From an uncultured Actinomycetes bacterium (GTDB taxonomy: Bacteria; Actinomycetota; Thermoleophilia; UBA2241), in contig CAVYCN010000002.1 in the NCBI GenBank assembly GCA_963767005.1, positions 576,001-640,000 on the forward strand: a stretch of DNA of 64,000 bases, read 5' to 3'. Made by a program: the position numbers and the translations under genes. The notes beneath the pieces were generated by a model. The model was not told the origin of the DNA. It made no database searches and saw only the letters and a list, made by a program, of their open reading frames with translations. This document shows, in pieces, positions 13,272 to 36,780 of this stretch (positions within the stretch are counted from its first letter, which is position 1; the number at the start of each line of letters is the position of its first letter).

Positions 13272-13407
13272 GCAAACGAGAGCCATCCAGGCTCACAGCA
13301 CCCTCCTCTCTCCGCCTCTGCCCGCGTCGACCCCTCGTCGCCGGCATCAGACCTGACGGTCGGGGCTGCCGGCGTCCCGATCGTCAGTGCGTCGCGGAGG
13401 CGGTGTG

Positions 13408-15018
13408 ATGAAACGCAGATTCCTCGTGGTGGCAGCCGCGCTGCTGGTCGCGGTGGTGCTCGCCTGGGGCGGCACCGCCTGGGCCGACCAGACGAGCGCA
13501 CAGATCGATCCGAGCGTGCTCACGGAGCTCGACGCCGCTGGCGGCGCCAGCGTGCCGGTCATCGTCTATGCGACCCCCGGCCACCTCGCCGACCTGACCG
13601 CAGAGCTCGGCGCGACCAACGTCGATGAATCGCTCGCGCTGATCGGCGCCGTCTCGACCGACGTCACGCCCGACACGATCACAACCGTCGCCGCGCTGCC
13701 CTACACCGACTACGTCGCCGCCGACGCCCCCATCTTCGGCACCGACTATCAGGCGAGTCTCGACGTGACCAACGCCACGATCGGGCTTGGCGCCATCGCA
13801 CCGCCCGCGCCCGTGGCGCACGGGCTCGACGGTGCAGGTGTCGGTGTGGCCGTGCTCGACAGCGGCAGCGCCGACGTACCAGACCTCGATGCCGCCAACG
13901 GCCAGTCGAGGGTCGTCGCCTTCGTCGACTTCGTGAACGGCCGGCGCCGCATGTACGACGACGGCGGGCACGGTACCTTCGTCGACGGCATCATCGCCGG
14001 CAACGGCGCAGGCTCGGTGCCGGTCGACCAGGGCGGCAAGGCCGCGACGCAGTACCGCGGCGTCGCGCCCGACGCGAACATCGTCTCGCTCAAGGTCCTC
14101 GACCGGCACGGCGACGGTCGCTCCTCGGCGCTCGTCGCCGCCATCGCCTGGGCGATCGCCCACCGGCAGCAGTACGACATCCGCGTCATGAACATCTCGG
14201 TCGAGGGGAACGTCACCTGTCCGGCCGCTTACGACCCGGTCGATCGTGCCGTCGACGCCGCCTGGAAGGCGGGCATCGTCGTCGTCTGCGCCGCCGGCAA
14301 CGAGGGCGCGTTCGGCGAAGGCGGCATCCTCTCCCCCGGCAACGATCCCTACGCGGTCACCGTCGGCGCCGCCGATACGCAGCAGACCGACGACCCGAGC
14401 GACGACGCCGTGTGCTCGTACAGCTCGATCGGTCCGACCCAGTTCGACGAGTTCGCCAAGCCCGACATCGTCGCCCCCGGCAACCACATCGTCTCGCTGC
14501 GGGCGCCCGGGAGCTGGGTCGACCTGAACTACCCGCAGACTCGCGTGCCGGTGTCGAGCTACATCCCGGGCGCCTCCAACTGGACACCGAGCGCCTACGC
14601 CGTCATGTCGGGCACGAGCGCCGCGGCCCCGGTCGTCGCCGGCGCGGCGGCGCTCATGATCCAGCAGGACCCGACGCTCACGCCGGGCGAGGTCAAGCTG
14701 CGCCTCATGGACAGCGCTCAGCCGATCGCAACGAGCGACAAGTACGCCGCGGGCGCCGGTGAGCTCGACGTCGCGGCCGCCCTCAAGGACGGGGCGACCA
14801 CGACCGGCTACGACACCTCCGCCAAGCTCGGCAACGGCACCACGATCCTGCCGATCGACGTCCAGCTCCAGTGGCAGCGCTACAGCTGGTCGCGCTATAG
14901 CTGGTCGCGCTACAGCTGGTCGCGCTACTCGTGGTCGCGCTACAGCTGGTCGCGGTACTCCTGGTCGAGATACACCTGGAGCAGGTACTCGTGGTCGGTG
15001 ATCATCGACGGGGAGTGA
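13408..15018 (+). CDS. Secreted S8 subtilisin-like serine peptidase with C-terminal (RYSWS)8 tail
   Basis: Sec signal (MKRRFLVV...AWA); triad VAVLDSG, GHGTFV, MSGTSAAAP; oxyanion AAGN; KPDIVAPG; GGAGG SD. Confidence 0.93.
   Translation: MKRRFLVVAAALLVAVVLAWGGTAWADQTSAQIDPSVLTELDAAGGASVPVIVYATPGHLADLTAELGATNVDESLALIGAVSTDVTPDTITTVAALPYTDYVAADAPIFGTDYQASLDVTNATIGLGAIAPPAPVAHGLDGAGVGVAVLDSGSADVPDLDAANGQSRVVAFVDFVNGRRRMYDDGGHGTFVDGIIAGNGAGSVPVDQGGKAATQYRGVAPDANIVSLKVLDRHGDGRSSALVAAIAWAIAHRQQYDIRVMNISVEGNVTCPAAYDPVDRAVDAAWKAGIVVVCAAGNEGAFGEGGILSPGNDPYAVTVGAADTQQTDDPSDDAVCSYSSIGPTQFDEFAKPDIVAPGNHIVSLRAPGSWVDLNYPQTRVPVSSYIPGASNWTPSAYAVMSGTSAAAPVVAGAAALMIQQDPTLTPGEVKLRLMDSAQPIATSDKYAAGAGELDVAAALKDGATTTGYDTSAKLGNGTTILPIDVQLQWQRYSWSRYSWSRYSWSRYSWSRYSWSRYSWSRYTWSRYSWSVIIDGE
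14878..14997 (+). repeat. Eight in-frame 15-bp repeats encoding RYSWS (seventh is RYTWS)
   Basis: Peptide conserved while codons vary (Arg CGC/CGG/AGA/AGG; Ser AGC/TCG/TCC). Confidence 0.95.
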
Positions 15019-16544
15019 GCGGCGCCTCTGAGCCGATGCGCCCGGCAGCGGCCGCGCAATCGCGCGCGGCCGTCACCGCGTTCGTCGTCGCGACGGCGCT
15101 CGCCGCCTGCGCGGCTCTCGTCTTCGCCCACACCCAGGGCGCCGCCGACCTGCCTCCCGGCGTGCTCGCCTTCGTGGTGCTCGTGTTCGTCACCAGCCTG
15201 CGCGACGTGCGCCTTCCGGTGGTCGGCCACGTCACGCTCACGTTCGTGCCGGTGCTCGCCGCGCTCGTCGTCTTCGGTCTCTGGCCGGCGCTCGTCGTCG
15301 TCGTCTTCTCGGGCCTGGCGACCATCGGGGTCACGCGCGACCCCGAGAAGATCCTCTTCAACGTCAGCAGCTACATCGTCGCGATGTTCGCGGCCGGCAC
15401 CGTCTATCTCGTGCTCCTGCCCGCCGCGCCCACCCTGTCGACGAAGGTCCTGCCGGCCTTCGCCGCCACCGGGGCCGACTTCCTCGTCAGCACGGCCATG
15501 CTGGCCACGGTGATCGCACTGTCCTCGCAACAGAACCCCGTTGTCGTCTGGCAGCGCAACTACCAGTGGGGCTTCCCGAGCTACCTCACGGGCGCCTCGC
15601 TCGCGCTGTGCGTCGCCTGGCTCTACCTGCGGATCGGCGTCGCCGGGCTCGCGCTCGGCGTGCCGCCGCTGTTCCTCATCTGGTACTCCTACGACGTCTA
15701 CACCGGACGCCTGCGCGACCGTGCCGCGTACACGAGCGAGGTGGCTTCGTTTCGCGAGGAGCTCGCCGCCGCGGTACGCTCGCAGGACGAGCTGCGTTCC
15801 GCTCAGCACCGGGTCGCCGCCGAGATCGAGCGGGCGCGCGGCATCCAGGCCGACCTGCTGCCGCGCCAGGCGCCCGACGTACAGGGGCTCGAGCTCGCCC
15901 ACCGCATCGAGTTCATGACCGAGATGGGCGGCGACTACTTCGACTTCGTCCCGCTGGACGACGGCCGCCTGGGCATCGTCTGTGGCGACGTCATGGGCAA
16001 GGGCCTCGCGGCCGCTCTCATCATGACGATGGCGCGCAGCATGATCCTCGGCGCCGCCCGCGACGGACGCCGCCCCGGCGAGGTCCTGTCGGCGGTGAAC
16101 GATGGCCTGACCCGTGATCTCGCCGGCCAGTCGGCGCCCTCGTTCCTGACGCTCGCCTACGCCATCTACTCGCCGTCACAACGCGAGCTCGTCATCGCCA
16201 ACGGCGGACACAACCCGCTGCTCGTGTTCGGCTCCGGCGGGCGCCGCGAGCTGCCCTCGCGGGGCAGCATGCTGGGCGTGCGCACCGACCTCGAGTTTCC
16301 CGAGGACCGTGTCGCGCTCGCGCCCGGCGACTCGTTCGCGCTCTTCACCGACGGTCTCACCGAGGCTCGCGGCGAGGACCGCGAGCTCTTCGGCGTGGAG
16401 CGTCTCGCCGACTCCCTGGCCGACGCCTCCGGCACCTCGGCCGCGGCGACCGTCGAGGCCGCCTGGCAAGCGGTGAGCGACTTCCGCGACGGCACGCCGG
16501 CGAGCGACGACGCCACCCTGCTGATCGGCCGCGTCGTCGCCTGA
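15015..16544 (+). CDS. Membrane-sensor SpoIIE/RsbU-type PP2C phosphatase
   Basis: GTG overlaps the peptidase TGA (GTGA); about 6-7 hydrophobic helices, coiled coil, then ARGIQADLLP, GGDYFD, GDVMGKG, NGGH, FTDGLTEA, DDATL. Confidence 0.9.
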   Translation: MSGASEPMRPAAAAQSRAAVTAFVVATALAACAALVFAHTQGAADLPPGVLAFVVLVFVTSLRDVRLPVVGHVTLTFVPVLAALVVFGLWPALVVVVFSGLATIGVTRDPEKILFNVSSYIVAMFAAGTVYLVLLPAAPTLSTKVLPAFAATGADFLVSTAMLATVIALSSQQNPVVVWQRNYQWGFPSYLTGASLALCVAWLYLRIGVAGLALGVPPLFLIWYSYDVYTGRLRDRAAYTSEVASFREELAAAVRSQDELRSAQHRVAAEIERARGIQADLLPRQAPDVQGLELAHRIEFMTEMGGDYFDFVPLDDGRLGIVCGDVMGKGLAAALIMTMARSMILGAARDGRRPGEVLSAVNDGLTRDLAGQSAPSFLTLAYAIYSPSQRELVIANGGHNPLLVFGSGGRRELPSRGSMLGVRTDLEFPEDRVALAPGDSFALFTDGLTEARGEDRELFGVERLADSLADASGTSAAATVEAAWQAVSDFRDGTPASDDATLLIGRVVA

Positions 16545-16552
16545 TCGAGCCA

Positions 16553-16579
16553 TCCAGAATCGGCGATTTCAGCCGATAC
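16553..16579 (+). promoter_or_regulatory. Putative sigma-28-like internal promoter
   Basis: TCCAG-N14-GCCGATAC just upstream of the anti-sigma kinase gene. Confidence 0.45.
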
Positions 16580-16591
16580 ACAACAGCGGAG

Positions 16592-17365
16592 ATGGTCATG
16601 CCAGCGCACGAGAGCAAGGTGAACCCCGCCACCCTCCAGGTGATGCGCTACGACGCTCGCCGGGGCACGCTGTCGGTCATCGTCGGCGAGGCCAGCGGCA
16701 TCCCGCGCGAGATCCTCGGCCAGCGCGCGATCGAAGCCATGCGGGCGCGCAGCTTCATCTGCCACACGACCGAGGCCGACACGCTGCTGGGCGCCGACGA
16801 GATCTGCTTCATCCCGCGCGGCGACCGCTGCGAGATCGTGAGCATCCACACCAACGGCTGGCGCCGCCACCACGGCGACCATCGCCGCAGCCTCGTCGAG
16901 ATCCTGAACGATCTCGCCGCGGCCGTCGCCCGCGGCACGCTCACGTTCCTCGACCGCGGTGAGCTCGAGGCGGTCAGGGCCGAGGGACACGCCGTGCTCA
17001 CCTGCACGATCGACGACACCGCCTCGCTCGCCCAGGCGCGCGCCGCGGTGGCTCAGGTCCTGTCCGACCACGGCGTCCCCGCCGACGCCCGGCGGCGCCT
17101 CGAGCTCTGCGTCTCCGAGGCCACCACGAACATGCTCGTGCACGGCGGCGGCGGCGGCACCATGAGCCTCGTGCGCGTCGCGGATCGTCTGCGTATCATC
17201 GTCGCTGACCGGGGACCCGGCCTGAACTTCATCAACTGGACCGAGACGGGCTCACGGCAACCCTCGATGGGCTACGGCTACAAGATCATTCTTGATAACC
17301 TTGAGCGCGTGTACCTGCACACCGGCGACGAGGGCACGACCCTCGTCCTCGATCACACGATCTAG
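16592..17365 (+). CDS. RsbW/SpoIIAB-like anti-sigma factor Ser kinase with extra N-terminal domain (start may be ATG 16598)
   Basis: LCVSEATTNMLVHG, IVADRGPG, SMGYG, GTTLVL boxes in the C-terminal half. Confidence 0.82.
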   Translation: MVMPAHESKVNPATLQVMRYDARRGTLSVIVGEASGIPREILGQRAIEAMRARSFICHTTEADTLLGADEICFIPRGDRCEIVSIHTNGWRRHHGDHRRSLVEILNDLAAAVARGTLTFLDRGELEAVRAEGHAVLTCTIDDTASLAQARAAVAQVLSDHGVPADARRRLELCVSEATTNMLVHGGGGGTMSLVRVADRLRIIVADRGPGLNFINWTETGSRQPSMGYGYKIILDNLERVYLHTGDEGTTLVLDHTI

Positions 17366-17379
17366 AAGGGACGGGACCG

Positions 17380-17694
17380 ATGCTGCACACGCGCGTTGAG
17401 ACCGCGGACACGCCCGTCATCCACCTCGAGGGCGAGATCGACCTCGACTCGGCGGAGACGTTCCGTTGGGTCGTGACCGACGCGGTGCGAGGCGCGACCC
17501 AGGTCGTGCTCGACTTCGCCAAGGTCACGTTCATCGACTCGTCCGGCACGGGGCTGCTCGTCCGCCTCTGCCTCGACTACAAGTCGCAGGGCGTGCGGCT
17601 GCTCCTCACCAACATCCCGCCCGCCGTCGACGACGTCTTCACCATGCTCAAGGTGCGGACCCTCGTCGGCGACGAATCGTTCCTCGACGCCTAG
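17380..17694 (+). CDS. STAS-domain anti-sigma factor antagonist (RsbV/SpoIIAA-like)
   Basis: LEGEIDL, VVLDFAKVTFIDSSG (phospho-Ser motif). Confidence 0.92.
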   Translation: MLHTRVETADTPVIHLEGEIDLDSAETFRWVVTDAVRGATQVVLDFAKVTFIDSSGTGLLVRLCLDYKSQGVRLLLTNIPPAVDDVFTMLKVRTLVGDESFLDA

Positions 17695-18888: not shown

Positions 18889-19716
18889 ATGGCAAGCGAG
18901 CCGACCGGTCTCACCGCGACGAGCGACATGCTCGACGAGGCCCGTGCCCTCATCGACGAGGCGCGGGCGGGCGGCGTGACGCTGCGCCTCGTCGGCGGCC
19001 TGGCCGTGCGCGCCCACTGCGCCGCGCCGGTGCTGTGCGAGCGGCCCTGCCGCGACATCGACCTCGTCGCGCCGCGCCGCGCGGGGCGCGCGGTCGGCGC
19101 GCTGCTCGACGGCCTCGGCTGGACCGAGAACCGCCAAGTGGCGATGGCGGCGGCGGGCCGCAAGCGCCAGTTCTTCCGCGGCTGCCGCCACGCCACCTCC
19201 GCCGGCAACGCCCATGTCGACGACCGCGTCGACCTGTACCTCGACGCCTTTCGGCTGCACCACACGATCGACCTGCGCGAGCGCCTCGACCTCGATCCCT
19301 ACACCGTGTCGCTGTCCGACGTGCTGCTCGTCAAGCTGCAGCGCACCCAGGCCGAGCCCGACGACGTGCGCGACATGCTCGGTGTGCTCGAGAGCGCCGG
19401 CGCGCTGGGTGAAGACGACGGCCCCGGGATCCTCAACCTCGACTACCTGACCCGGCTCTGCGCGGCCGATTGGGGCCTCTGCCACGACGTGGAGCGCAAC
19501 CTCGCGCGCTGCCGCGACGCCCTCGCCACGCCCGCGCGGCGAGACCCTGGCGTCCAGCGTGCGCCGGCCCGTCTCGACGCCATCGCAGCGGCCCTGGCGG
19601 GAGCGCCGCGGAGCTGGCGCTGGCGGCTGCGCGCCGCCCTGGGCGAACGGCTCGCCTGGCACGAGCCGGTCGACGACGTCGAGGGCGTGACCTTCGCCCC
19701 GGGCGAGCGGCCCTGA
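18889..19716 (+). CDS. Putative Pol-beta-superfamily nucleotidyltransferase of unknown function
   Basis: LRLVGGLAV...RDIDLV motif, VDLYLD, LLVKLQ...DVRD, DWGL; paralogous to the C-terminal domain of 38221-40275. Confidence 0.7.
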   Translation: MASEPTGLTATSDMLDEARALIDEARAGGVTLRLVGGLAVRAHCAAPVLCERPCRDIDLVAPRRAGRAVGALLDGLGWTENRQVAMAAAGRKRQFFRGCRHATSAGNAHVDDRVDLYLDAFRLHHTIDLRERLDLDPYTVSLSDVLLVKLQRTQAEPDDVRDMLGVLESAGALGEDDGPGILNLDYLTRLCAADWGLCHDVERNLARCRDALATPARRDPGVQRAPARLDAIAAALAGAPRSWRWRLRAALGERLAWHEPVDDVEGVTFAPGERP

Positions 19717-19858: not shown

Positions 19859-22800
19859 GTGTCGACCGTGCGCACGCCACGCCGCACCACGCCGCGCCGA
19901 GGCGTCCGGCCCCCGGGCACGCCGGGCGGGCGCCCCGCGCTGCGGCACGCCGCGCGCCAGCCCCAGCGGCTCATGCGCAGCGTCCTCGGCCCGGTCGACA
20001 TCGCCGCCTCGACCATGGCCAACATCGCCCCGGCCATGAGCTTCTACTTCGGCTTCGGCTTCCTCGCGCTCACGGCCGGCATCGCCTCGCCGCTCACGAT
20101 CGTCGCCGCCGGCGTCGCCATCGCCTTCCTGGCCAACACGCTGGCGCAGTTCTCGCGGGCCCATCCGTCGACCGGCTCGTTCATCACCTTCATCGGCAAG
20201 GCGTTCGGCCCGACGAGCGCGATCGCGACCGCCGTCATCCTCATCACCGGCTACGTGATCGCCATCATCTCGGTGCTCGTCATGTCGGGCGGTTTCACGG
20301 CCATCTTCCTGCACCGTTACGTGCCCGGCGTACCGGCCTCGTCGTGGCCCTGGTTCATGGTCGTCTTCGTGAGCGCGGCCGCCTACCTCATGGTGCGCGG
20401 CGTGCACATCTCGACTCGCTGGGCCGGGATCTTCTTCGCTTTCGAGATCGCGGTACTCGTCGTGGTCACGTTCAGCGCCCTGATCCACCACGCCGACCAC
20501 CTGACGCTCCATCCGTTCGACCCGCGCTACCTGTCGAACGGCTTCAAGGGCCTGGGCCTCGGGTTCCCGCTGGCCGTGTACCTGTTCATCGGCTGGGAGA
20601 ACTCGGCCGCCCTCGCCGAGGAGACCGAGAACCCGCGCCGCAACGTGCCCCGCGCCCTCTTCGCCAGCGTCGGCCTGATGATGCTGAGCTACGTCCTGTT
20701 CGCCTACGCCACCGTCGAGGGCTTCGGCGAGAACGTCGCCGCCCTGACCGCCGCGCCGATCCCCTTCATCACGCTGGCCGACAGCGTGCTCGGCGTGCTC
20801 GCCTTCCTCGCCTACCTCGCCGGCGTGACGTCGACCCTCGCCTGTCTGATCGCCGCGGTGAACTCGCAGTCGCGCCTGCTGTTCCACGCCGGCCGCGAGG
20901 GTCTGCTGCCGTCGTGGGTCGGCCGCGTGTACGCGCGCCGGCGCACGCCGGTGAACGCCCTCATGACCTTCACCGGTATCGGCCTCGTGCTCGTCTTCGC
21001 CTGGTCGTTCGGGCAGCACATCGACCCGGTGACGCTGTTCGCCGAGGCCTCGACGCTCGGCACCATCCTCGTGGTCGTCGTCTATCTCGTCGCCAACCTG
21101 GCACTGCCGGTCTTCTACCGCAAGCACCACCCCGACCAGTGGTCGCCCCTGCCCCACCTCGTCATCCCGCTCGTCGGCGCCGGCCTCATCGCCCTGCCGA
21201 TCTACGAACTCGTCAAGCCGGGGCAGGCCTCACCCTACGACCTGTTCCCGTACGTGGCGCTCGCGGTGATCGTGGTCGCCGTGGCCTACGCGGTGGCGCT
21301 GAACGCGCGCGACAAGACCTTGGCCGACCGCGTCGGCTCGCTCGTCGCCGACGACGCCGCCGACGGCAAGTTCGCCGGCTTCCTCGACGATGACGAGGAG
21401 CAGGTCCGCCACCTGCATCGCATCGCCCGCTGCCTGAACGAGGACCGCGACACCAAGCCGGCCCTGCAGAACGCCTTGCGCGTCGTCGCCGAGACGCTGG
21501 GCGCCGCCTCGGCGGCCGTGTTCGTCGTGCGTCCGGGCGACGTCGCCGAAGCCCTCACCGTCTGCGGCGACGCGCGCCGCAGCTTCCCCTACGCGCCGCT
21601 CGATCTCCGCCATCCGCTGCTCGCCCGGCTCGTGCGGCGTCCGGGCCTGCTCGAGGTCGTCGACGTCGACGGCCTGCCAGCGCCCCTGCTCGCCGTCGTC
21701 GCTCCCGACGCCGCCCGGGTCACCCTCGCGCCCCTGCCGGCCGGCCCCGGGGTCGCCGCACTCCTGCTGCTCAGCCGGCGGTCCGACGCTCCGCTCAGCG
21801 CGCGCAAGGCGGCCTTCGTCGCCGTCGTCTGCGAGACCCTGGGACCGGCCATCACGAGCCGCGCGCTGGCCGAAGAGTCGCATCACACGGCGGCCGTGCT
21901 CGAGACCGCCTACGCGGTCTCGCGGGCGATCACCCAGAGCCTCGACCTCGAGCACACCTACCGCGAGATCGCACGAAGCGCGGCGCGCGTCGCACGCGGC
22001 TCCCACTGCCTGTTGTTCGAACTCGAGCGCGGCACGGGCGACCATCTCGCCGTCGCCTGCTCCGATCCGGAGAGCGAGGACCTGCTGGGCACGCGCGTGC
22101 GGCTGCTCGAGAGCGCCGACCGGCCGCGCCAGCGAGCCGGCGGTGGTTTTGTCGTCCGGCCGGCGGCCACCCGCGGCGGCGGCCAGACCAGCAAGTTCTC
22201 GCTGGGCGGCCACCTCGGCGCCCGCCTGGCCGGCATGTTCAACGCCGACTCCTCGGTGCTCGTGCCCCTGTTCGCGCAGCAGGTGCCCGTCGGCTCGCTG
22301 CTCGTGTACGCGGCCGGCCGGCGGCGCCGCTTCTCGCCGCTCGAGGTGGCCGAGCTCGGCAGCGTGGGCGAGCAGGCCGCGATCGCCATCCACAACGCCC
22401 AGCTCTACCGCGACCTCACCGATAGCCGGGCGAGCGTCGAAGCGCTGCTCGGGCGTCTCACGCGGATCCGCGACCAGGAGCGCCAGGGCCTCGCCCGCGT
22501 GGTCCACGACGACATCGTGCAGTCCATCGTGGGCGCGGTCTACCGCCTCGACCTTCTGCGCGACGGCGTGGCCGGCGATCGGGTGGCCGAGTTCGACGAG
22601 GCGGTCGCCGGTCTGCGCCAGAGCATCGACGACGCCCGCCGGGTGATCTGGGAGCTGCGCCCGCCGGCGATCGAGGGCCTCGGCCTGCCGGCGGCGCTGC
22701 GCTCGCTGGCGGAGCGCAGCCACGACGGCGGCGCCCGCGTCGCGGTGTCGATCGAGGACGTCGTCGGCCTCTCCGACGCGGTCACGACCGGCCTCTACAA

Positions 22801-23095
22801 GATCGCCCGCGAGGCCCTCACCAACGCCCTGCACCACGCCGGCGCGCGCCGCATCGGCATCTCGCTCGCCGGCGCGCCCGCGGGCGAGCACGGCGGCGCG
22901 CACCTCGTCGTCGAGGACGACGGTGTAGGCTTCGTGGCCGACGCGAGCCGCGACGGCGGCCACTACGGGACGGTGATGATGGAGGAGCAGGCGACGCTCA
23001 TCGGTGCGACCCTGTCGATCGAATCACAGCCCGGTCGCGGCACGCGCGTCCGGGTCGTCGTGCCGGCGCCCCGCGCCGCGGCGGCGGCGAGATGA
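19859..23095 (+). CDS. APC-family permease fused to GAF domains and a NarX-type (HisKA_3) histidine kinase
   Basis: APC motifs (IAPAMS, PSTGS, GWENSAALAEETENPRRNVP) to ~21355; GAF ending EQAAIAIHNAQLY; H box VVHDDIVQ; EALTNA, DDGVGF, PGRGT; no internal stop; start uncertain. Confidence 0.9.
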   Translation: MSTVRTPRRTTPRRGVRPPGTPGGRPALRHAARQPQRLMRSVLGPVDIAASTMANIAPAMSFYFGFGFLALTAGIASPLTIVAAGVAIAFLANTLAQFSRAHPSTGSFITFIGKAFGPTSAIATAVILITGYVIAIISVLVMSGGFTAIFLHRYVPGVPASSWPWFMVVFVSAAAYLMVRGVHISTRWAGIFFAFEIAVLVVVTFSALIHHADHLTLHPFDPRYLSNGFKGLGLGFPLAVYLFIGWENSAALAEETENPRRNVPRALFASVGLMMLSYVLFAYATVEGFGENVAALTAAPIPFITLADSVLGVLAFLAYLAGVTSTLACLIAAVNSQSRLLFHAGREGLLPSWVGRVYARRRTPVNALMTFTGIGLVLVFAWSFGQHIDPVTLFAEASTLGTILVVVVYLVANLALPVFYRKHHPDQWSPLPHLVIPLVGAGLIALPIYELVKPGQASPYDLFPYVALAVIVVAVAYAVALNARDKTLADRVGSLVADDAADGKFAGFLDDDEEQVRHLHRIARCLNEDRDTKPALQNALRVVAETLGAASAAVFVVRPGDVAEALTVCGDARRSFPYAPLDLRHPLLARLVRRPGLLEVVDVDGLPAPLLAVVAPDAARVTLAPLPAGPGVAALLLLSRRSDAPLSARKAAFVAVVCETLGPAITSRALAEESHHTAAVLETAYAVSRAITQSLDLEHTYREIARSAARVARGSHCLLFELERGTGDHLAVACSDPESEDLLGTRVRLLESADRPRQRAGGGFVVRPAATRGGGQTSKFSLGGHLGARLAGMFNADSSVLVPLFAQQVPVGSLLVYAAGRRRRFSPLEVAELGSVGEQAAIAIHNAQLYRDLTDSRASVEALLGRLTRIRDQERQGLARVVHDDIVQSIVGAVYRLDLLRDGVAGDRVAEFDEAVAGLRQSIDDARRVIWELRPPAIEGLGLPAALRSLAERSHDGGARVAVSIEDVVGLSDAVTTGLYKIAREALTNALHHAGARRIGISLAGAPAGEHGGAHLVVEDDGVGFVADASRDGGHYGTVMMEEQATLIGATLSIESQPGRGTRVRVVVPAPRAAAAAR

Positions 23096-23733
23096 CCGCG
23101 TCGGCCGACAGGACACGCGTCCTCATCGTCGACGACCACGCCGTCGTGCGCGAGGGTCTCGAGCGCATCATGGCCAAGTGCGCCGATCTCGAGGTGGTCG
23201 GCTCGGCCGCGAGCGGCGAGGAGGCGCTCGACCTGGCCGCCTCCCTCGAGCCCGACCTCGTGCTGCTCGATCTCTCGCTGCCGGGCATGCACGGCCTCGA
23301 CGTGCTGGGCGTCCTGCAGACGCTGCCGCGCCCGCCCCGGGTGATCGTGCTCACCGTGCACGACGACGACGACATCGTGCTCGGCGCCGTGCGTGGCGGC
23401 GCCCAGGGCTACGTCCTCAAGAACGCCACGCGCGACGAGCTCATCGCCGCCGTGCGCCACGTCGCGACCGGCGGCCAGTCTTTCGACGAGGTCGTCGTGC
23501 GCGCCCTGCTGCGCGGCGACCAGCGCGAGGTGCTGTGCAGCCTGCTCACCGCGCGCGAGCTCGACGTCCTGCGCCTCGTGGCCGGCGGCCAGACCAACAA
23601 GGAGATCGCCGCCGCCCTGTTCATCAGCGCCGACACCGTCAAGGGGCACCTCGAGACGATCTACCGCAAGCTCGGCGTGTCCGACCGGGCGCACGCCGTG
23701 GCGGTCGCCATCCGCAACGGCCTCGTTGCCTGA
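23092..23733 (+). CDS. NarL/LuxR-family response regulator
   Basis: VDDHAVVREG, LLDLSLP, GYVLK, LTARELDVL...TVKGHL; ATGA overlap with the kinase stop. Confidence 0.95.
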   Translation: MTASADRTRVLIVDDHAVVREGLERIMAKCADLEVVGSAASGEEALDLAASLEPDLVLLDLSLPGMHGLDVLGVLQTLPRPPRVIVLTVHDDDDIVLGAVRGGAQGYVLKNATRDELIAAVRHVATGGQSFDEVVVRALLRGDQREVLCSLLTARELDVLRLVAGGQTNKEIAAALFISADTVKGHLETIYRKLGVSDRAHAVAVAIRNGLVA

Positions 23734-23890
23734 CGGTCATCCCCCGAACGGCCCCCCGCCTCGCGGGCCGAACGCCGGCGCGATCCCACCCGATCGGCGC
23801 CGGCGGAGCGCCGTTTGTGGCGTTTCGGCGGCGGCCCGCGTCGCCTAGGCTCGGCGCGGCGGTATCCGTAGTCGATGATCGGGGGGATCT

Positions 23891-25495
23891 ATGGCTGAAG
23901 AGATCGCGTTTGCCCGCAAGGCGAGCGGCCTGGTGCGCGGACTGTCCTTCTGGGACGTGACCGGCATCGGCCTCGCGTTCATCACGCCCATCTACGCCAT
24001 CTGGTACATCATCGAGGTGGGCCTCGTCCTGTACCCGTCGGCCAACCTGCTGATCGCGATCCTTATCTCAGTGCTGACGATCGGCTGGGCGAGCCCCATC
24101 GTCTGGGGCGTCCTGGGCGGCAGCATGCCGCGCAGCGGCGGCGAGTACATCTACAACTCGCGCATCATCAACCCGGCCGTCGCGCTGGGCGCGAGCTTCA
24201 CCGCGATCGTCGCCCAGTTCTACTGGAACCTCTTCAACTCGAGCCTGATCGCGGTGCCCTCGCTGGCCATCCTCGGCCAGTACCTCGGCTGGACGGGGCT
24301 GTCGAACTTCGCCACGAGCAAGCACGGCGGCGTCATCCTCTCGTGTCTGGGTATCGGCATCGCCTTCCTCATCCTGGCCTTCGGCATGAAGACCTTCCGG
24401 CACCTGTCGAAGGTCGTGATCGTCATCATGCTGGGCGGCGTCGTGATCCTTGACCTCGCCCTGACCCTGGCCAGCAAGGCGAGCTTCATCAAGCACTGGG
24501 ACGCGCAGGCCGCCAAGTACCACTCGCTGCCCTACCACCAGTTCGTCGCCGCGGCCCACACGGCCGGCGCCGCCACGCCGACGACCTGGACCTGGGGCGA
24601 CACCTTCGGCGCCACGGCCGGCGTCTTCATGATCTTCATCTGGGCGTTCGGCATCGCCTACGTAGGCGGCGAGGTCAAGCGTCCCGACAAGACCGTCATG
24701 CGCGCCCAGTGGGCGGCCGTGGGCATGCCGGTGCTGCTCTGCATCTGGGCCGTGCTGGCGATCGGTCACATCATGCCGTACGACTTCCTGCGGGCCGCGG
24801 CCTTCCAGGACTTCTCGGCGGCCACCAAGGGCTACAACCTGCCCTACTCGACGAGCTTCATGTCGATCGCCTTCGTCGCCTCGGGCGCGAACTGGTTCAT
24901 CGGCCTCGTGGCCGGCGTCACCTTCGGAGTGACCGCGCTCTGGCTCGTCGTCGTCAACCTGCTGATGTGCCAGCGCGCGATGTTCGCCTGGGGCATGGAC
25001 CGCATGGGGCCGACCTGGTTCACGTCGATCAACACGCGCACCGCGTCGCCGATCGGCATGCTCGGCTTCGTGGCGGCCATCTCGGCGTTCCTGTCGGTAG
25101 CCTACTGGTACCTGTTCCCGAGCGTCCTGTCGGGTCTGTTCGCGTCGGGCATGCAGCTCGTGTCGGTGTTCGGCGTGACCGCTATCTCGGCGATCATCTT
25201 CGCCTACCGCAAGAAGGCGGCTCACATCTGGAACTCGTCGCCCTACCGCAACTGGAAGGTGGCCGGCATCCCGGTGCTGACGATCGCCGGAGTCGTCTAC
25301 CTCTGCTACATCGTCGCGCTGCTGTACTTCGCGTTCTTCGACGCAAAGACGAAGGACGTGACGGGCAAGAAGGTCTGGCTCATGGTCGTGGCCTGGGCCG
25401 CGGGCATCGCCTGGTACTACTTCTGGAAGTACCGCAGCGCCCAGAAGGGCGTCGACGTGGCGACCATGACCTACGGCGAGCTGCCGCCTGAGTGA
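23891..25495 (+). CDS. APC-family amino acid/amine permease (second subfamily)
   Basis: FARKASGLVR, MPRSGGEYIY, GGEVK, RAMFAWGMDR; about 12 TM segments. Confidence 0.88.
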   Translation: MAEEIAFARKASGLVRGLSFWDVTGIGLAFITPIYAIWYIIEVGLVLYPSANLLIAILISVLTIGWASPIVWGVLGGSMPRSGGEYIYNSRIINPAVALGASFTAIVAQFYWNLFNSSLIAVPSLAILGQYLGWTGLSNFATSKHGGVILSCLGIGIAFLILAFGMKTFRHLSKVVIVIMLGGVVILDLALTLASKASFIKHWDAQAAKYHSLPYHQFVAAAHTAGAATPTTWTWGDTFGATAGVFMIFIWAFGIAYVGGEVKRPDKTVMRAQWAAVGMPVLLCIWAVLAIGHIMPYDFLRAAAFQDFSAATKGYNLPYSTSFMSIAFVASGANWFIGLVAGVTFGVTALWLVVVNLLMCQRAMFAWGMDRMGPTWFTSINTRTASPIGMLGFVAAISAFLSVAYWYLFPSVLSGLFASGMQLVSVFGVTAISAIIFAYRKKAAHIWNSSPYRNWKVAGIPVLTIAGVVYLCYIVALLYFAFFDAKTKDVTGKKVWLMVVAWAAGIAWYYFWKYRSAQKGVDVATMTYGELPPE

Positions 25496-26130: not shown

Positions 26131-27426
26131 TTAGACTCGCTCGGCGCGCTCCGGCGCGGCCGCTCCGCCGAGGAGCTCCAGCTCCATGCCCTGCGCCGCG
26201 AGCTCGTCCTGGATGCGACCGGCCGCGAGGTCGCGTGGCGCGCACCCGTCGCGCACCGCGAGCGCCGCGGCGACGCCGGCCGCCTGCCCGGTGGCGAAGC
26301 ACACCGGGATCAGGCGGAGCTGCACCATGGCGTCGGGAGCCGCCGACAGGCAGCGACCGGCGAACAGCAGTCCGTCGACCGACTCGGGCACCAGTGAGCG
26401 GTACGGGATGCGCATGGAGCGCCCGGCGTAGGGCTTGGCCACCGTGTCGGGGAACACGGTCGCGAAGACCTCCTTGAGGCCCGGTGTGGCGAGGCCGGTG
26501 ATGCGCCGCGTGCCGCGCACGCCGACCTGCGCCGCCGTGCACTCCAGGCGGGCGCGCTCGAAGCCCGCCAGGCGCGTGCGCAGAAACGCGACCAGCCGCA
26601 TGGTGTGCTGGCGGGTCACGATCTCGGCCCTCGTCAGGTCGTCGGGGTCGATGCCGTTCACGCCGAACAGGCTGCCCGACCACAGGTTGATCTGACCCGG
26701 GTAACAGAGCTCGGCGGCGAAGACGCCCGGCGCGAACGCGCGCGAGTGGACCTCGAGGTCGAACTCGAGCTCGCCGGCGGCCACGGCCGCTTCGACCAGA
26801 CCGCGCAGGTTACCCCAGCTGCCGAGCTGCCCGAGGGCGCGAGCGGTGTCGATGCCGACGACCGTCGACATGAGGGTCACCGGCAGTGGCCGCGAGTCGA
26901 GCTCGTAGGCGGCGCCGGCGGCGGCCGCGAGGTCGCCGTCGCCGGTCGTGTCGATCACGAGGCGGGCGCGGATCGCCGCCCGCCCCGCCTTGGTCTCGAT
27001 GATGACGCCGCTCACGCGACCGTCGTCGGTGAGGCTACCGACCACGCCGGTGTGCAGCAGGAGCCGGGCACCGGAGTCGAGCAGCAGGGTGAGCAGCTCG
27101 AACTTGAGGATCTCGGGGTCGACCGCGATCAGGCCGTCGACCGCGGGGTCGTCGCCCAGGTTGGCGCACTCCTGGTAGGTGCGCGCCTCCTCGAGCCGCC
27201 CACGTACCTCGCCGTTGATGCCGTTGTCGAGCGGCGGCACGGTGATCACGAGGCCGCCGGTGGCGAGGCCGCCGAGATAGCCGTACCGCTCCAGCAGGAT
27301 GACGCGCGCGCCCAGGCGAGCGGCGCAGACGGCCGCCGCCACCCCCGCGACGCCGCCGCCGCAGACCACGACGTCGGTCTCGTCGTACACCGGGATCGAA
27401 CGTCTCTCCTCGATCACCACATCCAT
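26131..27426 (-). CDS. FAD-dependent oxidoreductase
   Basis: VVVCGGGVAG, GGLATGG, IDTTGDGDLA, IPYRSLVP, AGRCLS, TGQAAG. Confidence 0.9.
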   Translation of the reverse strand: MDVVIEERRSIPVYDETDVVVCGGGVAGVAAAVCAARLGARVILLERYGYLGGLATGGLVITVPPLDNGINGEVRGRLEEARTYQECANLGDDPAVDGLIAVDPEILKFELLTLLLDSGARLLLHTGVVGSLTDDGRVSGVIIETKAGRAAIRARLVIDTTGDGDLAAAAGAAYELDSRPLPVTLMSTVVGIDTARALGQLGSWGNLRGLVEAAVAAGELEFDLEVHSRAFAPGVFAAELCYPGQINLWSGSLFGVNGIDPDDLTRAEIVTRQHTMRLVAFLRTRLAGFERARLECTAAQVGVRGTRRITGLATPGLKEVFATVFPDTVAKPYAGRSMRIPYRSLVPESVDGLLFAGRCLSAAPDAMVQLRLIPVCFATGQAAGVAAALAVRDGCAPRDLAAGRIQDELAAQGMELELLGGAAAPERAERV

Positions 27427-27482
27427 GATCTACTCGGCCCCCTTGCACCGCGGCTCGCGCACCACGCTCGAGGTCCGCCGCG

Positions 27483-28916
27483 TCACTCCTGTCCTCCCGC
27501 GTCCTTCACTGCCTGCTTCAGCGAAGCGTAGCCGGGGAGTGTACGATAAAACTCGTCGCGGGTGTAGCAGCCCGACACGGTGCCGAAGCCCGGCGCGATG
27601 TCGCACCAGCTACAGGCGTTGCAGAGGCTCTTGCGCCGCAGCGGGCGCCCCGCGACGACGTCGGCCGCGATGTCGGGGTAGCTCAGCGCCATGCGCCCGA
27701 TGCCGATCGTGTCGGCCCAGCCGCGCTCGACGACCGCCTGACCCACGTTGGGCAGCCACTGCTGCAGGTACGAATAGCCGCTGCCGATGTGCACGAGCTC
27801 GGGATGCGCCCGCTTGAGCTCGGCCACGATCTTCACGAGTCGCACGACGCCGACGAGCGGGTCTTCGGGCGGCCGGTGCGGCGCGACCGGCAGCGACATG
27901 TAGGGCTCCATCACGTGCGAGTTGTACTCGGCGCCGCCCGAGGCCGACACCAGACTGATGTCGAGCTCGGCCAGCAGGTCGAGGAACGCCAGGGGCTCGC
28001 GCAGGTCGCAGCCCAGGCCGCTGCCGTCGCCGCCGAAGGCGTAGCGGTAAGGCTCCCGGCCCGGAGGCGCAGGCTGCGTGCGGTCGCCGTCGCCGTCGAT
28101 GAAGGGCACGAAGTCGACGGCGCTGAAGCGCACGGCGATGCCGAGACCGGGGGCCTCGGCACGGATGCCGGCCACGATCTCGCGCAGGAAGCGCGTGCGG
28201 TTCTCGAAGCTGCCGCCGTAGGGGCCGGGCCGCTCGACGGCGCTCAGGAACTCATGGCCAAGGTAGCCGTGACAGTGCTTGACGTCGACGAAGTCGAAGC
28301 CCGCCTGCCGCGACAGCACGCCGGCGTGGACGAAGTCGGCGACCACGCGCTCGATCTCGGCGTCGCTCATGACGGCGTCGTCGCCCTGGGCGTCGTAGCG
28401 CTCGTCGAGCAGCGGGTGGTGGTACAGCACGCGCGGCTCGCAGCGGTCCATGTCGTGCGGATGCGCGACGCGCCCCGAGTGGGTGAGCTGCACGCCGACC
28501 ATGAGGTCGTCGGTCCTGCCGAAGTGGCGCTCGTGGGTGGCGACGAGCAGCCGCCGCAGGCCGGCGATGTCGTCGAGGTTCTCGTCGACCATGACGAGCT
28601 GGCTCGGGCTGCCCCTGCCCTCGGGACAGACGGCGATCGCCTCGGCCCCGAAGATGAGCTTCGCGCCGCTCAGGCCCCAGCGCTCCCAGCGCCGCCGGGT
28701 GAGGTCGGTCGGGCGGCCGTCGACCGTACAGTCCCAACCCTCCATGGGCAGGATCGCAAAGCGGTTGCCCACCGTGCGCCCGAACACCTCCAGCGGACGG
28801 CCGAGCGGCGAGTCGGGGCCGGACCGCACCTCGTCGTCGACCGGCAGCTCCAGGCCGAGCGACTCGACGTACGCGCGCAGCGACTCCACGTCTTCAAAAC
28901 GACCGATGTTGCGCAT
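27483..28916 (-). CDS. NADH:flavin oxidoreductase (Old Yellow Enzyme family)
   Basis: NRFAILPMEGWD, QLTHSGR, GFDFVDVKHCHGYL, YGGSFENRTR, C-terminal CNACSWC...C; AGGAGG SD. Confidence 0.9.
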   Translation of the reverse strand: MRNIGRFEDVESLRAYVESLGLELPVDDEVRSGPDSPLGRPLEVFGRTVGNRFAILPMEGWDCTVDGRPTDLTRRRWERWGLSGAKLIFGAEAIAVCPEGRGSPSQLVMVDENLDDIAGLRRLLVATHERHFGRTDDLMVGVQLTHSGRVAHPHDMDRCEPRVLYHHPLLDERYDAQGDDAVMSDAEIERVVADFVHAGVLSRQAGFDFVDVKHCHGYLGHEFLSAVERPGPYGGSFENRTRFLREIVAGIRAEAPGLGIAVRFSAVDFVPFIDGDGDRTQPAPPGREPYRYAFGGDGSGLGCDLREPLAFLDLLAELDISLVSASGGAEYNSHVMEPYMSLPVAPHRPPEDPLVGVVRLVKIVAELKRAHPELVHIGSGYSYLQQWLPNVGQAVVERGWADTIGIGRMALSYPDIAADVVAGRPLRRKSLCNACSWCDIAPGFGTVSGCYTRDEFYRTLPGYASLKQAVKDAGGQE

Positions 28917-29041
28917 GAGCCTCTGCTTCCTCCTTCGGGCCACGTCACTGCCCTCGTGCGGGCGACGCCGGCCGCCGCGCCGGGCCCGGCGCGGGCCCGG
29001 TTCGACCCCGCCGGTCGGGACCGGCCGTCCGTCGTGCTCGC

Positions 29042-29072
29042 GGCGGGGGTGGAGCGTCGCTCCACCCCCGCC
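29042..29072. terminator. Intra-operon hairpin (terminator or mRNA stabiliser)
   Basis: GGCGGGGGTGGAGCG-t-CGCTCCACCCCCGCC just after the permease stop. Confidence 0.55.
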
Positions 29073-29103
29073 ACCCGCGGTTGTCGTTGGCGATCCCCGG
29101 CGA

Positions 29104-30600
29104 CTACTCGTCAGCGACGAGGGCACCGACCCTGTCGCCGAGGGTCTTGTCGCGGCTGTTGATGATCGCGGCGTAGATCAGCGCCACGACGATCATCGCC
29201 AGGGCCACGTAGGGGAACGCGTTGTACGGCGAAGGCTGGCCGGGCTTCACCAGGTTGTAGAGCGGATACACGATGACCGCCGTGCCGATGACCGGCAGGA
29301 TGAGATCCCTGACGACGCTGAACTGGCTGCGGTAGTGCTTGAGGTAGAAGATCGGCAGCGACAGGTTGGCCACCGCGTACGCGATGATCACGAGGATCGT
29401 ACCAAGCGTCGAGGGTTCGGCGAAGAGCACGATCGGCGTGATGCCCTGGATCAGCGCCCAGCCGAAGCAGCCGACCAGGCCGATGATCATGAAGACGACG
29501 AGGGCGTTGACCGGCGTGCCGCGCTTCGCGGACACCTTGCCAAGCCACTTCGGCAGCAGACCCTCGCGCCCCGAGTTGAACATGAGCCGGGCCTGCGAGT
29601 TGACCGCGGCGATCAGACAGCCGACGGTCGAGGTCACGCCGGCGATGTAGGCGAGGAAGGCGAGGAAGGCAAGCTCCTTCTGGGCCACGCCGATGAACGG
29701 GATCGAGTTGGCGGTCAGCTTGCCGACGTTCTCGCCGTAGGCCTCGACGGTGGCGTAGGAGAAGAGCACGAAGCTGGCCAGCATGAGCGCCACGCTGGCA
29801 AACAGAGCACGCGGGATGTTCTTGCGCGGCTGGTCGGTCTCTTCGGCCATGGGGCCGGCCGCCTCCCAGCCGATGAACATGTAGACGGCGAGCGGGAAGC
29901 CCAGGCCCAGCCCCTTGAAGCCGCTCAGCAGGTAGTGCGGGTTGAAGGGGTGCAACGTGAGATGGCCGCCGTTCTGGATGAGCGCGATGATGCTGACGAG
30001 CATCAGGATGATGAACTCGAAGGCGAAGAAGGCGCCCGCCCAGCGGGTCGAGAGGTGCACGCCCCTGATCATGAGGAAGGCGGCCAGACCGACGAAGGCG
30101 CAGACGAAGATCGGCCACGTCCACGACGGGAACGAGTGGAAGTAGTTCTGCAGGAACATGGTCATGAAACCGCCGGAGATGGCCATGATCGAGAAGATGT
30201 TCACAAGATAGCCGCCGACCAGCACGATGGCCGTGGTGATCGCCAGGACCGGCCCAAGAGCCATGCCTATGAACGTGATGAACGAGCCGGTCGACGGGTG
30301 GGCCTGCATATAGCGTGAGAGCGTGTTGGCCAGGAACGCGACCGCAATGCCGGCCACGATGATGGTGAGCGGCGAAGCGACACCCGACGTCGCCGCAAGG
30401 AAGCCAAAGCCGAAGTAGAAGCTCATCGCCGGGGCGATGTCGGCCATGGTCGAAGCCGCGACCTCGAACGGCCCGAGCACGCCGCGCTTGAGGCGGTTGC
30501 TCTCGGTGGCCGGGGTGGCCGCGGCTTCGGTCGCCGCGGGCGGCGGTGCCGTCACCGTGCTGACGCCACTGCGGGCGCCCTCTGCGTCGTTGGACTCCAT
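29104..30600 (-). CDS. APC-family permease, close paralogue of the sensor domain of 19859-23095
   Basis: Shares IAPAMSFYFGFGFLA, HPSTGSFITFIG, GFKGLGLGFPLAVY, CLIAAVNSQ, LVKPGQ and RDKTL.DRVG.LVAD with the fusion protein. Confidence 0.92.
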   Translation of the reverse strand: MESNDAEGARSGVSTVTAPPPAATEAAATPATESNRLKRGVLGPFEVAASTMADIAPAMSFYFGFGFLAATSGVASPLTIIVAGIAVAFLANTLSRYMQAHPSTGSFITFIGMALGPVLAITTAIVLVGGYLVNIFSIMAISGGFMTMFLQNYFHSFPSWTWPIFVCAFVGLAAFLMIRGVHLSTRWAGAFFAFEFIILMLVSIIALIQNGGHLTLHPFNPHYLLSGFKGLGLGFPLAVYMFIGWEAAGPMAEETDQPRKNIPRALFASVALMLASFVLFSYATVEAYGENVGKLTANSIPFIGVAQKELAFLAFLAYIAGVTSTVGCLIAAVNSQARLMFNSGREGLLPKWLGKVSAKRGTPVNALVVFMIIGLVGCFGWALIQGITPIVLFAEPSTLGTILVIIAYAVANLSLPIFYLKHYRSQFSVVRDLILPVIGTAVIVYPLYNLVKPGQPSPYNAFPYVALAMIVVALIYAAIINSRDKTLGDRVGALVADE

Positions 30601-30703
30601 GTCCCCCTCCCTCTCTTTCAGGTACGCGGTCAGCGGTACGTGGAACGGACGGCGGGACTCCCCCAGACCGGCCGGCTGTCGGGACGTGCCAGGCGTGCAC
30701 CCG

Positions 30704-32050
30704 TCATCGCGGCGGCTCGATCGCCGCCACGAGCGGCTTCAGGATGTCGACGACGCGGTCGGCCTCGTCGACGGTCGTCGTGCAGGGCGGCGCGATCACG
30801 ATGCGGTTCGAGCCCATCTGCCGCAGGTGCAGGCCCAGATGCCGGGCCTCGTCGAGCAGCGGCATGATCGGCCCCACCGGCGGATTGAACATCGCCTTCG
30901 TCTCTTTGTCGGCGACGATCTCCATGGCGAGCATGAGGCCGAGGCCGCTGTGCGTGCCGACGCACGGCATCGGCATGAACTCGCGTTCGATGCGCTCGAC
31001 GATGTGGGCGCCGACCCGGGTCGCGTTCTCGGCGATGTGCTCGTTCACGTAGACGTCGACCGCCGCGATCGCGGCGGCGCAGCCGGCCGGCGAGCCGCTG
31101 AAGGTGTACTGGTGCATGAGCGGGATGCCCTCGAGGCCGGCCCAGATCCTGTCGTTGAAGGCGACGGCGCCCATCGGGACGTAGCCGCCGGTGATGCCCT
31201 TCGACATCGCGATCACGTCGGGCACCACGTCCCAGTGGTTGATGCAGAACATCGTGCCGGTGCGGCAGAAGCCGCACATCACCTCATCGGCGATCATGGC
31301 GACCTCGTACCTGCTGCAGATCTCGCGGATCAGCGGCCAGTAGGTGTCGGGCGGCACGAGGAAGCCCGACGCGCCGAGCTCGGGCTCGGCGATGAAGGCG
31401 GCCACGTTCTCGGGCCCCTCAGCCTCGATCACCGTCTCCAGGAAGCGCGCGCAGCGCGTGTCGCAGACCGGATACTCGAGACCGAACGGACAGCGGTAGC
31501 AGTAGTAGGCCGGGATCTTCAGGTAGCCCGGCGCCTCGGGCCCGTAGCCGGCCTGCATGGCCGGGATACCGGTCAGGTTCATGGGCCCGTTGCCGGTGCC
31601 GTGGTAGCTCATGTAGAGGCTCACGACCTTGCGCTTGGTGGGCTGGCCGATCGCCGTGAAGTAGCGCCGCACGAGGCGGATCGCGGCGTCGGTCGACTCG
31701 CCGCCGCCCGAGGTGAACCAGAAGTGGTCGAGGTCGCCGGGCGTGACCGTCGCGAGCTTGCGGGCGCATTCGACCATCGGCGTGCTGGAGTGGCCGTAGT
31801 ACTGCCCGACGTGCTGCAGCTTGTTCAGCTGCGCCGTGACCGCGTCGATGATCTCGCGCCGGCCGTGGCCCAGGTTGGCGCTCACCATCTGCGACGAGGC
31901 GTCGAGGTACTCCTTGCCCTCGGTGTCGCGCAGCACGATGCCTTCGGCGGAGTCGTAGATCACGCCGAGCGTCTCGCCGAGCGGGATCTGGGCGTGCAGG
32001 ATGTGCTCTCTGTCGTACTTGACGAGCTCTTCGGTACGCGCACTGGTCAT
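30704..32050 (-). CDS. Class III (omega-type) PLP aminotransferase
   Basis: NLGHG, TSGGGES, SYHG, FIAEP, IADEVMCGFCRTG, MSKGITGGY.P. Confidence 0.92.
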   Translation of the reverse strand: MTSARTEELVKYDREHILHAQIPLGETLGVIYDSAEGIVLRDTEGKEYLDASSQMVSANLGHGRREIIDAVTAQLNKLQHVGQYYGHSSTPMVECARKLATVTPGDLDHFWFTSGGGESTDAAIRLVRRYFTAIGQPTKRKVVSLYMSYHGTGNGPMNLTGIPAMQAGYGPEAPGYLKIPAYYCYRCPFGLEYPVCDTRCARFLETVIEAEGPENVAAFIAEPELGASGFLVPPDTYWPLIREICSRYEVAMIADEVMCGFCRTGTMFCINHWDVVPDVIAMSKGITGGYVPMGAVAFNDRIWAGLEGIPLMHQYTFSGSPAGCAAAIAAVDVYVNEHIAENATRVGAHIVERIEREFMPMPCVGTHSGLGLMLAMEIVADKETKAMFNPPVGPIMPLLDEARHLGLHLRQMGSNRIVIAPPCTTTVDEADRVVDILKPLVAAIEPPR

Positions 32051-32120
32051 CTCTGTCTTCGACCCGTCCTTTCGACCGTCAGGTGTCAGACCCGAAGGGG
32101 CCACGTTCACGTGCTGCACA

Positions 32121-32155
32121 CATAAAACGATTTATGCGATAGAAAACGATTTCTG
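32121..32155. promoter_or_regulatory. Two tandem LacI-family operators next to a minus-strand TTGACA (32162-32167)
   Basis: Near-palindromes CATAAAACGATTTATG and TAGAAAACGATTTCTG with central CG in an AT-rich patch. Confidence 0.7.
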
Positions 32156-32179
32156 CTCTCCTGTCAAGCCGGGCTGTCC

Positions 32180-32920
32180 TCAGGAGGAGTAAGCCTGCTC
32201 GAGCGGCAGGATCTGGATCTGCGTCGTGTTGACCACGCGCGGCTGAGCGAGCGCATAGGCGACCGCCCAGGCGATGTGCTCCGGCGACAGCGCCTCGATC
32301 TTCTCAAGGTCGTGCTTGCCGATCGGCAGCGCGTGGATGAGGGGCGTGTCGACCAGACCGGGCTCGATCTGCGTGACCCGCACGCCGTACTCGAGCGCCT
32401 CTTTGCGCAGCGAGCCGGCCATGCCGGCGATCGCCCATTTGCTGGCGATGTACATGGGCTCACCGACGTAGGTCACCCGCCCTGATATCGAGGCCATCAC
32501 GACGATGTGGCCGTTGCGCCGCACCTTCATGAAAGGCAGCACGGCACGGATCAGAAAGGCGGTGCCGAGCACGTTGGTGTCGATCATGCGCTGCCACTCG
32601 GCCGGGTCGCCGGTGAGCATGTCGCCCTCGATGTCGATGCCGGCGTTGGGCACCGCGAAGTCGACCTTGCCGTAGGTGTCGGCGCACAGCTTCGCGAGGC
32701 GCTCCATGTCGTCGAAGGAATGGACGTCGGCGCTGAAGCCGACCGCCGTGCCGCCGCTCGCCGTGATCGTCGCGACCAGGCGATCGATGTCGTCCTTGGT
32801 GCGGGCGCAGACCACGAGCTGCGCTCCCAGGCCGGCGAGCTCGCGCGCCACGGCCTCGCCGATGCCTTTGCCGGCGCCGGTGATCACCCCGGCGCGCCCC
32901 GTCAGGTCGAAGTCGAGCAT
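32180..32920 (-). CDS. Short-chain dehydrogenase/reductase
   Basis: TGAGKGIG, PNAG, YIASK, EPGLVDT. Confidence 0.92.
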   Translation of the reverse strand: MLDFDLTGRAGVITGAGKGIGEAVARELAGLGAQLVVCARTKDDIDRLVATITASGGTAVGFSADVHSFDDMERLAKLCADTYGKVDFAVPNAGIDIEGDMLTGDPAEWQRMIDTNVLGTAFLIRAVLPFMKVRRNGHIVVMASISGRVTYVGEPMYIASKWAIAGMAGSLRKEALEYGVRVTQIEPGLVDTPLIHALPIGKHDLEKIEALSPEHIAWAVAYALAQPRVVNTTQIQILPLEQAYSS

Positions 32921-32961
32921 CGCTCATCCCCTTTCGCGGTCTGCTTGCGCGGACGTGCCGG

Positions 32962-36761: not shown

Positions 36762-36780
36762 GACTCCCTCCTGACGCTCG

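Follow-up and report, generated by a model that had tools for sequence, protein, structure and literature searches.

A conserved APC permease-histidine kinase fusion in Thermoleophilia as a candidate membrane sensor

The present study concerns a gene at nucleotides 19859-23095 (+ strand) of a 64,000-nucleotide stretch of DNA (the window; contig CAVYCN010000002.1, positions 576,001 to 640,000) from an uncultured, soil-type Thermoleophilia bacterium. The gene joins a whole APC permease to a GAF-GAF-HisKA_3 histidine kinase; the fusion is real, conserved and joined exactly at the permease C-terminus. The kinase of this clade otherwise travels with a separate APC-fold partner. Both this partner and a second fusion type escaped an earlier reading of the window made by a model from the letters alone (the original prediction). 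With a probability of roughly 0.55, we propose that the kinase senses an amine- or amino acid-like solute at the membrane through the fused permease, which would take the place of the separate partner. Ligand binding at the permease would then control kinase output, which would make the protein a transceptor in the functional sense. Hereafter, the architecture of the window gene is called type 1, and the same kinase clade carrying a different permease is called type 2.

The reading frame contains zero internal stops over its 1078 residues, and its GTG start aligns with ATG in three relatives, downstream of a GGGGG run resembling a ribosome site. BLASTP aligned the fused permease with a free permease at 29104-30600(-) without a gap over residues 36-499 (295/464 identical, 64%). 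The alignment ends with SLVADD in the fusion and with ALVADE followed by the stop in the free copy, placing the junction after residue 499 (nucleotide 21355). Since the two permease halves are only 73% identical in DNA, they do not represent a mis-joined repeat. A protein search with the fusion returned 53 matches, 24 of which were full-length fusion clusters at 54-94% identity, and both matches with a taxon name were Thermoleophilia. Among 89 genomes of one Thermoleophilia family, 11 type-1 loci were found in three genera. The junction is open in 25/25 full-length type-1 proteins, all of which share a GKF and acidic linker of near-constant length; furthermore, an independent contig of 1769 nucleotides crosses it without a gap (20159-21924; 142 differences). 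Thus, the covalent fusion, its junction near 21355 and the end-to-end alignment of the first ~500 residues with the free paralogue were all correctly called in the original prediction, and the stop or frameshift at the junction that it had named as refuting evidence did not appear in the 25 full-length proteins or the bridging contig. That the gene is decaying, or that it is an artefact of assembly or of a frameshift, would fit the frameshifts seen within it in some relatives (P0025, P0028-P0031, P0035), including three of the 11 type-1 loci (G001, G008, G407). However, G008 is broken in adjacent genes as well, all domains are under purifying selection, and the shared junction and the bridging contig refute this explanation, to which we give next to no weight.

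Pfam detected AA_permease, AA_permease_2, GAF, HisKA_3 and HATPase_c above cut-off in the fusion protein, the two permease families scoring 96.9 and 96.1 bits (cut-offs 24.6 and 27, respectively). Of the two GAF domains, only the second was detected by Pfam in this protein; GAF1 is backed by the AlphaFold model and by the soluble relatives, some of which have two GAF stretches. The model (69 sequences; mean pLDDT 80) comprises an APC fold, two GAF-type domains and a long helix into DHp. Its permease domain resembles BasC, GkApcT, AdiC and ApcT (target TM-score 0.75-0.86), i.e., a LeuT-type fold. A linker of about 13-20 residues leads directly into GAF1, and the Pfam scan of the fusion protein found no HAMP domain. 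The H, N, G1 and G2 boxes are present in 25/25 full-length type-1 proteins, which assigns the kinase to the HisKA_3 (NarX/UhpB) class. Hence, the "NarX-type" label of the original prediction was right as to kinase class and wrong if read as NarX itself, as the equivalog cut-offs are missed for both NarX (45.6 bits against 578) and NarQ (66.8 against 553). In the ESM atlas, the whole fusion protein retrieved only soluble GAF kinases (<0.9), and the permease domain retrieved free permease clusters in 30/30 matches. The closest relatives of this domain are unfused permeases of Actinomycetota.

The soluble relatives of the kinase provide the context for the proposed role. A kinase-clade profile search of 1.84 billion representatives yielded about 40 top single-stretch members, among which soluble proteins of 400-740 residues predominate. 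In the 89 family genomes, 17/17 soluble kinases of the clade are followed by a regulator gene and an APC-fold partner gene within about 120 nucleotides. Likewise, 17/17 strong partner matches adjoin such a soluble kinase (6/17 lying outside the training alignment), and an additional partner, which is broken, adjoins what remains of a kinase gene. The partners form one clade (99) that excludes APC2, an unrelated permease encoded downstream of the fusion, and have an APC fold (model pTM 0.87); this and all other trees are quick IQ-TREE runs with SH-aLRT support only. The partner gene is found in 0/11 type-1 loci, and the seven genomes with type 1 alone (53-92% complete) gave no partner-clade match. 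It is also absent beside two more distant metagenome kinases (L143, L152), whose match to the profile begins only at GAF2, and three metagenome contigs end too early to judge its presence. The GAF1 motif GxTxxRxxPY is intact in 43/45 soluble kinases and 5/5 type-2 proteins and in 0/26 type-1 proteins, 17 of which keep a shortened form; this motif may dock the partner. Kinase and partner trees share 9/14 splits, a congruence that is expected from their linkage and is therefore not counted as support. Soluble and type-2 kinases have an extra N-terminal domain that is left unassigned; it looked PAS-like by eye, but 0/45 matched a PAS model at E ≤ 0.5 among the 25 families listed.

The window's own genome also carries the in-trans form, consisting of soluble kinase, regulator and APC-fold partner (G000:C11:60276-64668, L039), adjoining a beta-lactamase-family hydrolase and a peptide ABC transporter. 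The soluble cassette nearest the fused clade (L137:851-5651) lies behind a diol/glycerol dehydratase gene. At two other loci (L131:11400-12770 and L148:3157-4527), a soluble-kinase cassette stands next to the monomethylamine methyltransferase MtmB, a B12-binding protein and a permease. The MtmB frame continues across a single in-frame TAG (Pfam halves 1-195 and 216-449), from which pyrrolysine use in this Thermoleophilia family is probable.

Type 2 comprises five clusters (P0056, P0072-75) with the same kinase, the extra N-terminal domain and a permease about 32% identical to that of type 1. The type-2 permeases form one clade, far from the type-1 permease. In contrast, the type-2 kinases form a paraphyletic group, in which P0056 and L136 together are the sister of type 1 (100), and type-2 monophyly is rejected (approximately unbiased test, p-AU 5e-4). 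No type-2 gene was found in the 89 family genomes or among 22 metagenome loci, and one contig, L136, whose start is cut off, is the sole source of both the taxon and the gene context assigned to type 2. Long frames over APC matches in G011, G038, G019 and G021 were rejected as APC-kinase fusions, having no kinase match. In L137, the soluble kinase, the regulator and the partner are followed by an unfused permease that shares 63% identity with the type-2 domain. As type 1 nests inside type 2, the simplest history is that the kinase's membrane input was exchanged. At the level of the trees, a soluble kinase with regulator and partner would have been fused to a neighbouring permease (type 2), the partner apparently being kept. 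That permease would then have been swapped for a copy of another one, and both the extra N-terminal domain and the partner would have disappeared (type 1). Alternatively, the two types may have arisen independently, each by its own fusion from a soluble kinase since lost.

The permease is the most conserved domain of the fusion, with a genus-level identity of 88-90% against 50-57% for GAF1 and 73-79% for GAF2. The ratio of nonsynonymous to synonymous substitution rates (dN/dS; simple Nei-Gojobori counts on seven pairs of GC-rich DNA) was 0.06-0.20 for the fused permease, 0.05-0.16 for the free copy, 0.28-0.77 for GAF1 (relaxed) and 0.12-0.27 for GAF2. In the permease tree, the fused copies and the free paralogues form sister clades (SH-aLRT 98), in agreement with the duplicate origin proposed in the original prediction. 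That prediction had also contrasted MANIAP with MADIAP and GWENSAAL with GWEAAGPM in the fused and free copies. The segments are as quoted, but the change is derived in the free copy and not in the fused one. The GWENS-A-[AT]-L motif of transmembrane helix 6 (TM6) occurs in 63/63 free Actinomycetota relatives and in the fused copy, which also keeps the TM1 motif MANI(A/G)P of these relatives; MADIAP and GWEAAGPM are the forms found in 6/7 free paralogues from Thermoleophilia. Given that the fused copy retains the motifs of its free relatives, these differences are no sign that it turned into a sensor. The intact motifs suggest that the domain still functions as a transporter.

Free relatives of the permease lie directly before a copper amine oxidase at 18/73 loci and beside an aldehyde dehydrogenase at 10, counts in which kin are not independent. 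On account of these neighbours, a primary amine is the best guess for the ligand. The free permease of the window belongs to a catabolic run (26131-37668(-)) of Eda, KdgK, LacI, an aldehyde dehydrogenase, SDR, a class-III aminotransferase, the permease, OYE and an FAD oxidoreductase, which has its own LacI regulator. In G008, a divergent allele with near-ancestral motifs occupies the same operon position (L026:12766-14256; 53% identical to the window free copy and 60% to the fused copy).

The kinase stop is overlapped by a NarL-type regulator gene, as the original prediction had it; that prediction also named the downstream permease as a possible target, and an operator-like array conserved before APC2 makes this likely. 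At eight loci, the gap between regulator and APC2 contains, besides a TAGGCT that resembles a -10 element, as many as four C(A/G)WWY(G/A) cores at intervals of 22-24 bp, the four positions being occupied in 6, 7, 7 and 6 of the 8 loci. TTGTGG sits 25 bp from the -10-like element, and a poor hexamer occupies the -35 position. A profile of the array block finds a single copy in the genome, before APC2 (next E 0.35), and the same placement in eight further loci; the array was not found upstream of the free-permease operon. G003 is without the whole fusion-regulator-APC2 block and keeps the free permease operon. Because the single-copy array stands only before APC2 and the block is absent as a whole in G003, APC2 rather than the free-permease operon is the likely target of activation by the regulator through this predicted operator. 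Coordinates of the features are given in Table 1.

Table 1. Features of the fusion locus and its free paralogue in the window
Feature	Coordinates	Strand	Remarks
Fusion gene	19859..23095	+	1078 residues; APC permease, acidic linker, GAF1, GAF2, HisKA_3, HATPase_c
APC permease domain, 12 helices, residues 39-499	19973..21355	+	family motifs intact; dN/dS 0.06-0.20
Linker, near-constant length, x-x-x-GKF and acidic run	21356..21394	+	low model confidence
GAF1, approximately residues 513-665	21395..21853	+	fastest-evolving domain; clade motif GxTxxRxxPY shortened or lost
GAF2, approximately residues 680-850	21896..22408	+	type-1-specific insertion of about 14 residues
HisKA_3 DHp and ATPase domain	22409..23068	+	His883 = codon 22505-22507
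NarL/LuxR-type response regulator	23092..23733	+	start overlaps kinase stop; predicted acceptor Asp60
Predicted operator array	23745..23851	+	cores at 23745, 23769, 23791 and 23812; spacing 24/22/21-22; -10-like TAGGCT at 23846-23851
APC2, second APC permease, unrelated	23891..25495	+	predicted regulatory target; after the regulator in 10/11 fused loci
Free paralogous permease	29104..30600	-	derived TM1/TM6 motifs; inside catabolic gene run

Several neighbouring genes deserve mention. Genes for APC2-family permeases are accompanied by one resembling a metallophosphoesterase and, as judged by eye, one resembling a nucleotidyltransferase (G000:C3:257254-260770; L129:6526-9167; L161:8308-10922); a nucleotidyltransferase-like gene is likewise encoded ahead of the fusion (window 18889-19716). 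A subtilase whose C-terminus is a run of repeated RYSWS units (window 13387-15018) has a conserved position upstream of the cassette. Window 14931-17694 is a partner-switching cluster, syntenic in the genus, consisting of a SpoIIE phosphatase with a MASE9-like membrane part, an RsbW-like ATPase and a STAS protein.

How might the fused permease signal? Its domain is complete and under strong purifying selection. It would bind the solute and probably still carry it, and a change of shape could pass through the short linker to GAF1-GAF2 and along the long helix into DHp. As judged from the motifs, His883 would be phosphorylated and the phosphate transferred to Asp60 of the overlapping regulator, which, given the conserved single-copy array, would activate the APC2 promoter. 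A number of observations weigh against this proposal. The linker has low confidence in the model and the domain orientation is undefined (pTM 0.49). GAF1, the domain adjoining the permease, is the least constrained, and the fused permease pocket has no sensor-specific change. Type 2 appears to keep the partner (L136, contig start cut off), so fusion of a permease alone does not replace it. Partner loss, motif decay and type-1 fusion constitute one evolutionary event, and their correlation counts once. Moreover, 55/73 free relatives have no adjacent amine oxidase, G015 has the fusion but neither APC2 nor the array, and in CbrA, histidine transport and kinase activity are reported to be independent (PMC8871633).

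The last observation sets the precedent for an uncoupled fusion, in which the permease imports the solute and anchors the kinase, and GAF2 or GAF1 senses the solute or its product inside the cell. The transporter motifs kept by the fused permease, its evolution at the pace of the free copy, the flexible linker in the model and the fairly conserved GAF2, with its invariant Cys717 and type-1-specific insertion, are all consistent with such an arrangement. However, it leaves unexplained why every soluble kinase has a dedicated APC-fold partner that is absent with the type-1 fusion, and why the linker length is nearly constant, and we consider it less likely than sensing through the permease. It is still less probable that coupling exists in neither form, the partners being ordinary transporters co-transcribed as autoregulated targets and the fusion tying an uptake gene to its regulator. 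Co-transcription alone would account for the linkage and the tree congruence, and neighbours can fuse by stop-codon loss, L137 showing such a neighbour. Yet the permease of L137 is encoded after the kinase, an order from which read-through alone cannot produce the fusion. Moreover, the kinase-partner pairing is strictly one-to-one though other cassette neighbours differ widely, and two different permeases were fixed at the same N-terminal place. Returning to the permease as membrane sensor, a wider history is conceivable, at somewhat less than even odds. In a three-component design of Thermoleophilia, a soluble GAF-GAF-HisKA_3 kinase would read a dedicated APC-fold partner via the GAF1 motif, and its input would have been changed by bolting on ordinary permeases on two occasions, the partner being dropped on the second. 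On this view, the fusion in the window would be a transporter that only recently turned receptor; its free sister lies 10 kb away, and its genome would still carry the ancestral form in trans (G000:C11).

Transporter-kinase fusions have been called rare, and the coupling of transport and signalling is unresolved even for CbrA. One lineage, and partly one genome, offers a series of kinase and partner in trans, fusion with partner and fusion without partner, to which are added a free permease sharing 64% identity with its fused counterpart and a read-out predicted at a single promoter. Thus, the question of how a transporter becomes a receptor is made testable by domain swaps. No paper on an APC-GAF-HisKA_3 fusion was found in the literature searched, in which most subscription journals were absent; PMC12918730 is unrelated.

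The fusion is a variant of the transporter-kinase kind, and the architecture class itself is not unique. Its characterised analogue is CbrA, which like CrbS is an SLC5-STAC-PAS histidine kinase (PMC13022988, PMC8871633). As in these proteins, a LeuT-fold secondary transporter is covalently N-terminal to a histidine kinase, with the cognate regulator adjoining. In contrast to them, the transporter is APC (AA_permease) and not SLC5 (only AA_permease families at E ≤ 0.01), and no STAC four-helix domain separates it from the kinase, the linker running straight into GAF1. Furthermore, GAF-GAF, HisKA_3 and a NarL-type regulator stand where CbrA/CrbS have PAS and an NtrC-type regulator. The range is also narrow, and the transporter half is still 64% identical to its free neighbour. 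Transceptors are treated as rare in another source, which names DctA-DcuS and BceAB-BceS as co-sensor pairs (PMC11109136). The cassettes of soluble kinase and partner resemble these pairs, in that a transporter likely feeds a signal to a signalling protein; they differ in a kinase without its own membrane segment and a partner clade found only beside the kinase. Type 1 differs from trans co-sensors by its covalent link. LysP-CadC is a further case of a transporter co-sensor acting in trans. The cytoplasmic order GAF-GAF-HisKA_3 is shared with DosS/DosT (DevS), along with weak profile matches to the GAF and ATPase domains; the homology is not close (E 1e-8 to 1e-10, short stretches), and the input of the fusion is a membrane permease. 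DosS/DosT have a haem-binding GAF-A with a conserved His ligand. Within type-1 GAF1, no His is conserved in at least 70% of proteins, and His676, His716 and His845 lie elsewhere. Transporter folds also serve as ligand sensors in the APC-fold receptors GerAB and Ssy1 and in the Amt-kinase Ks-Amt5. These have other outputs or folds and are sensor-specialised, whereas the fused permease looks like an unmodified transporter.

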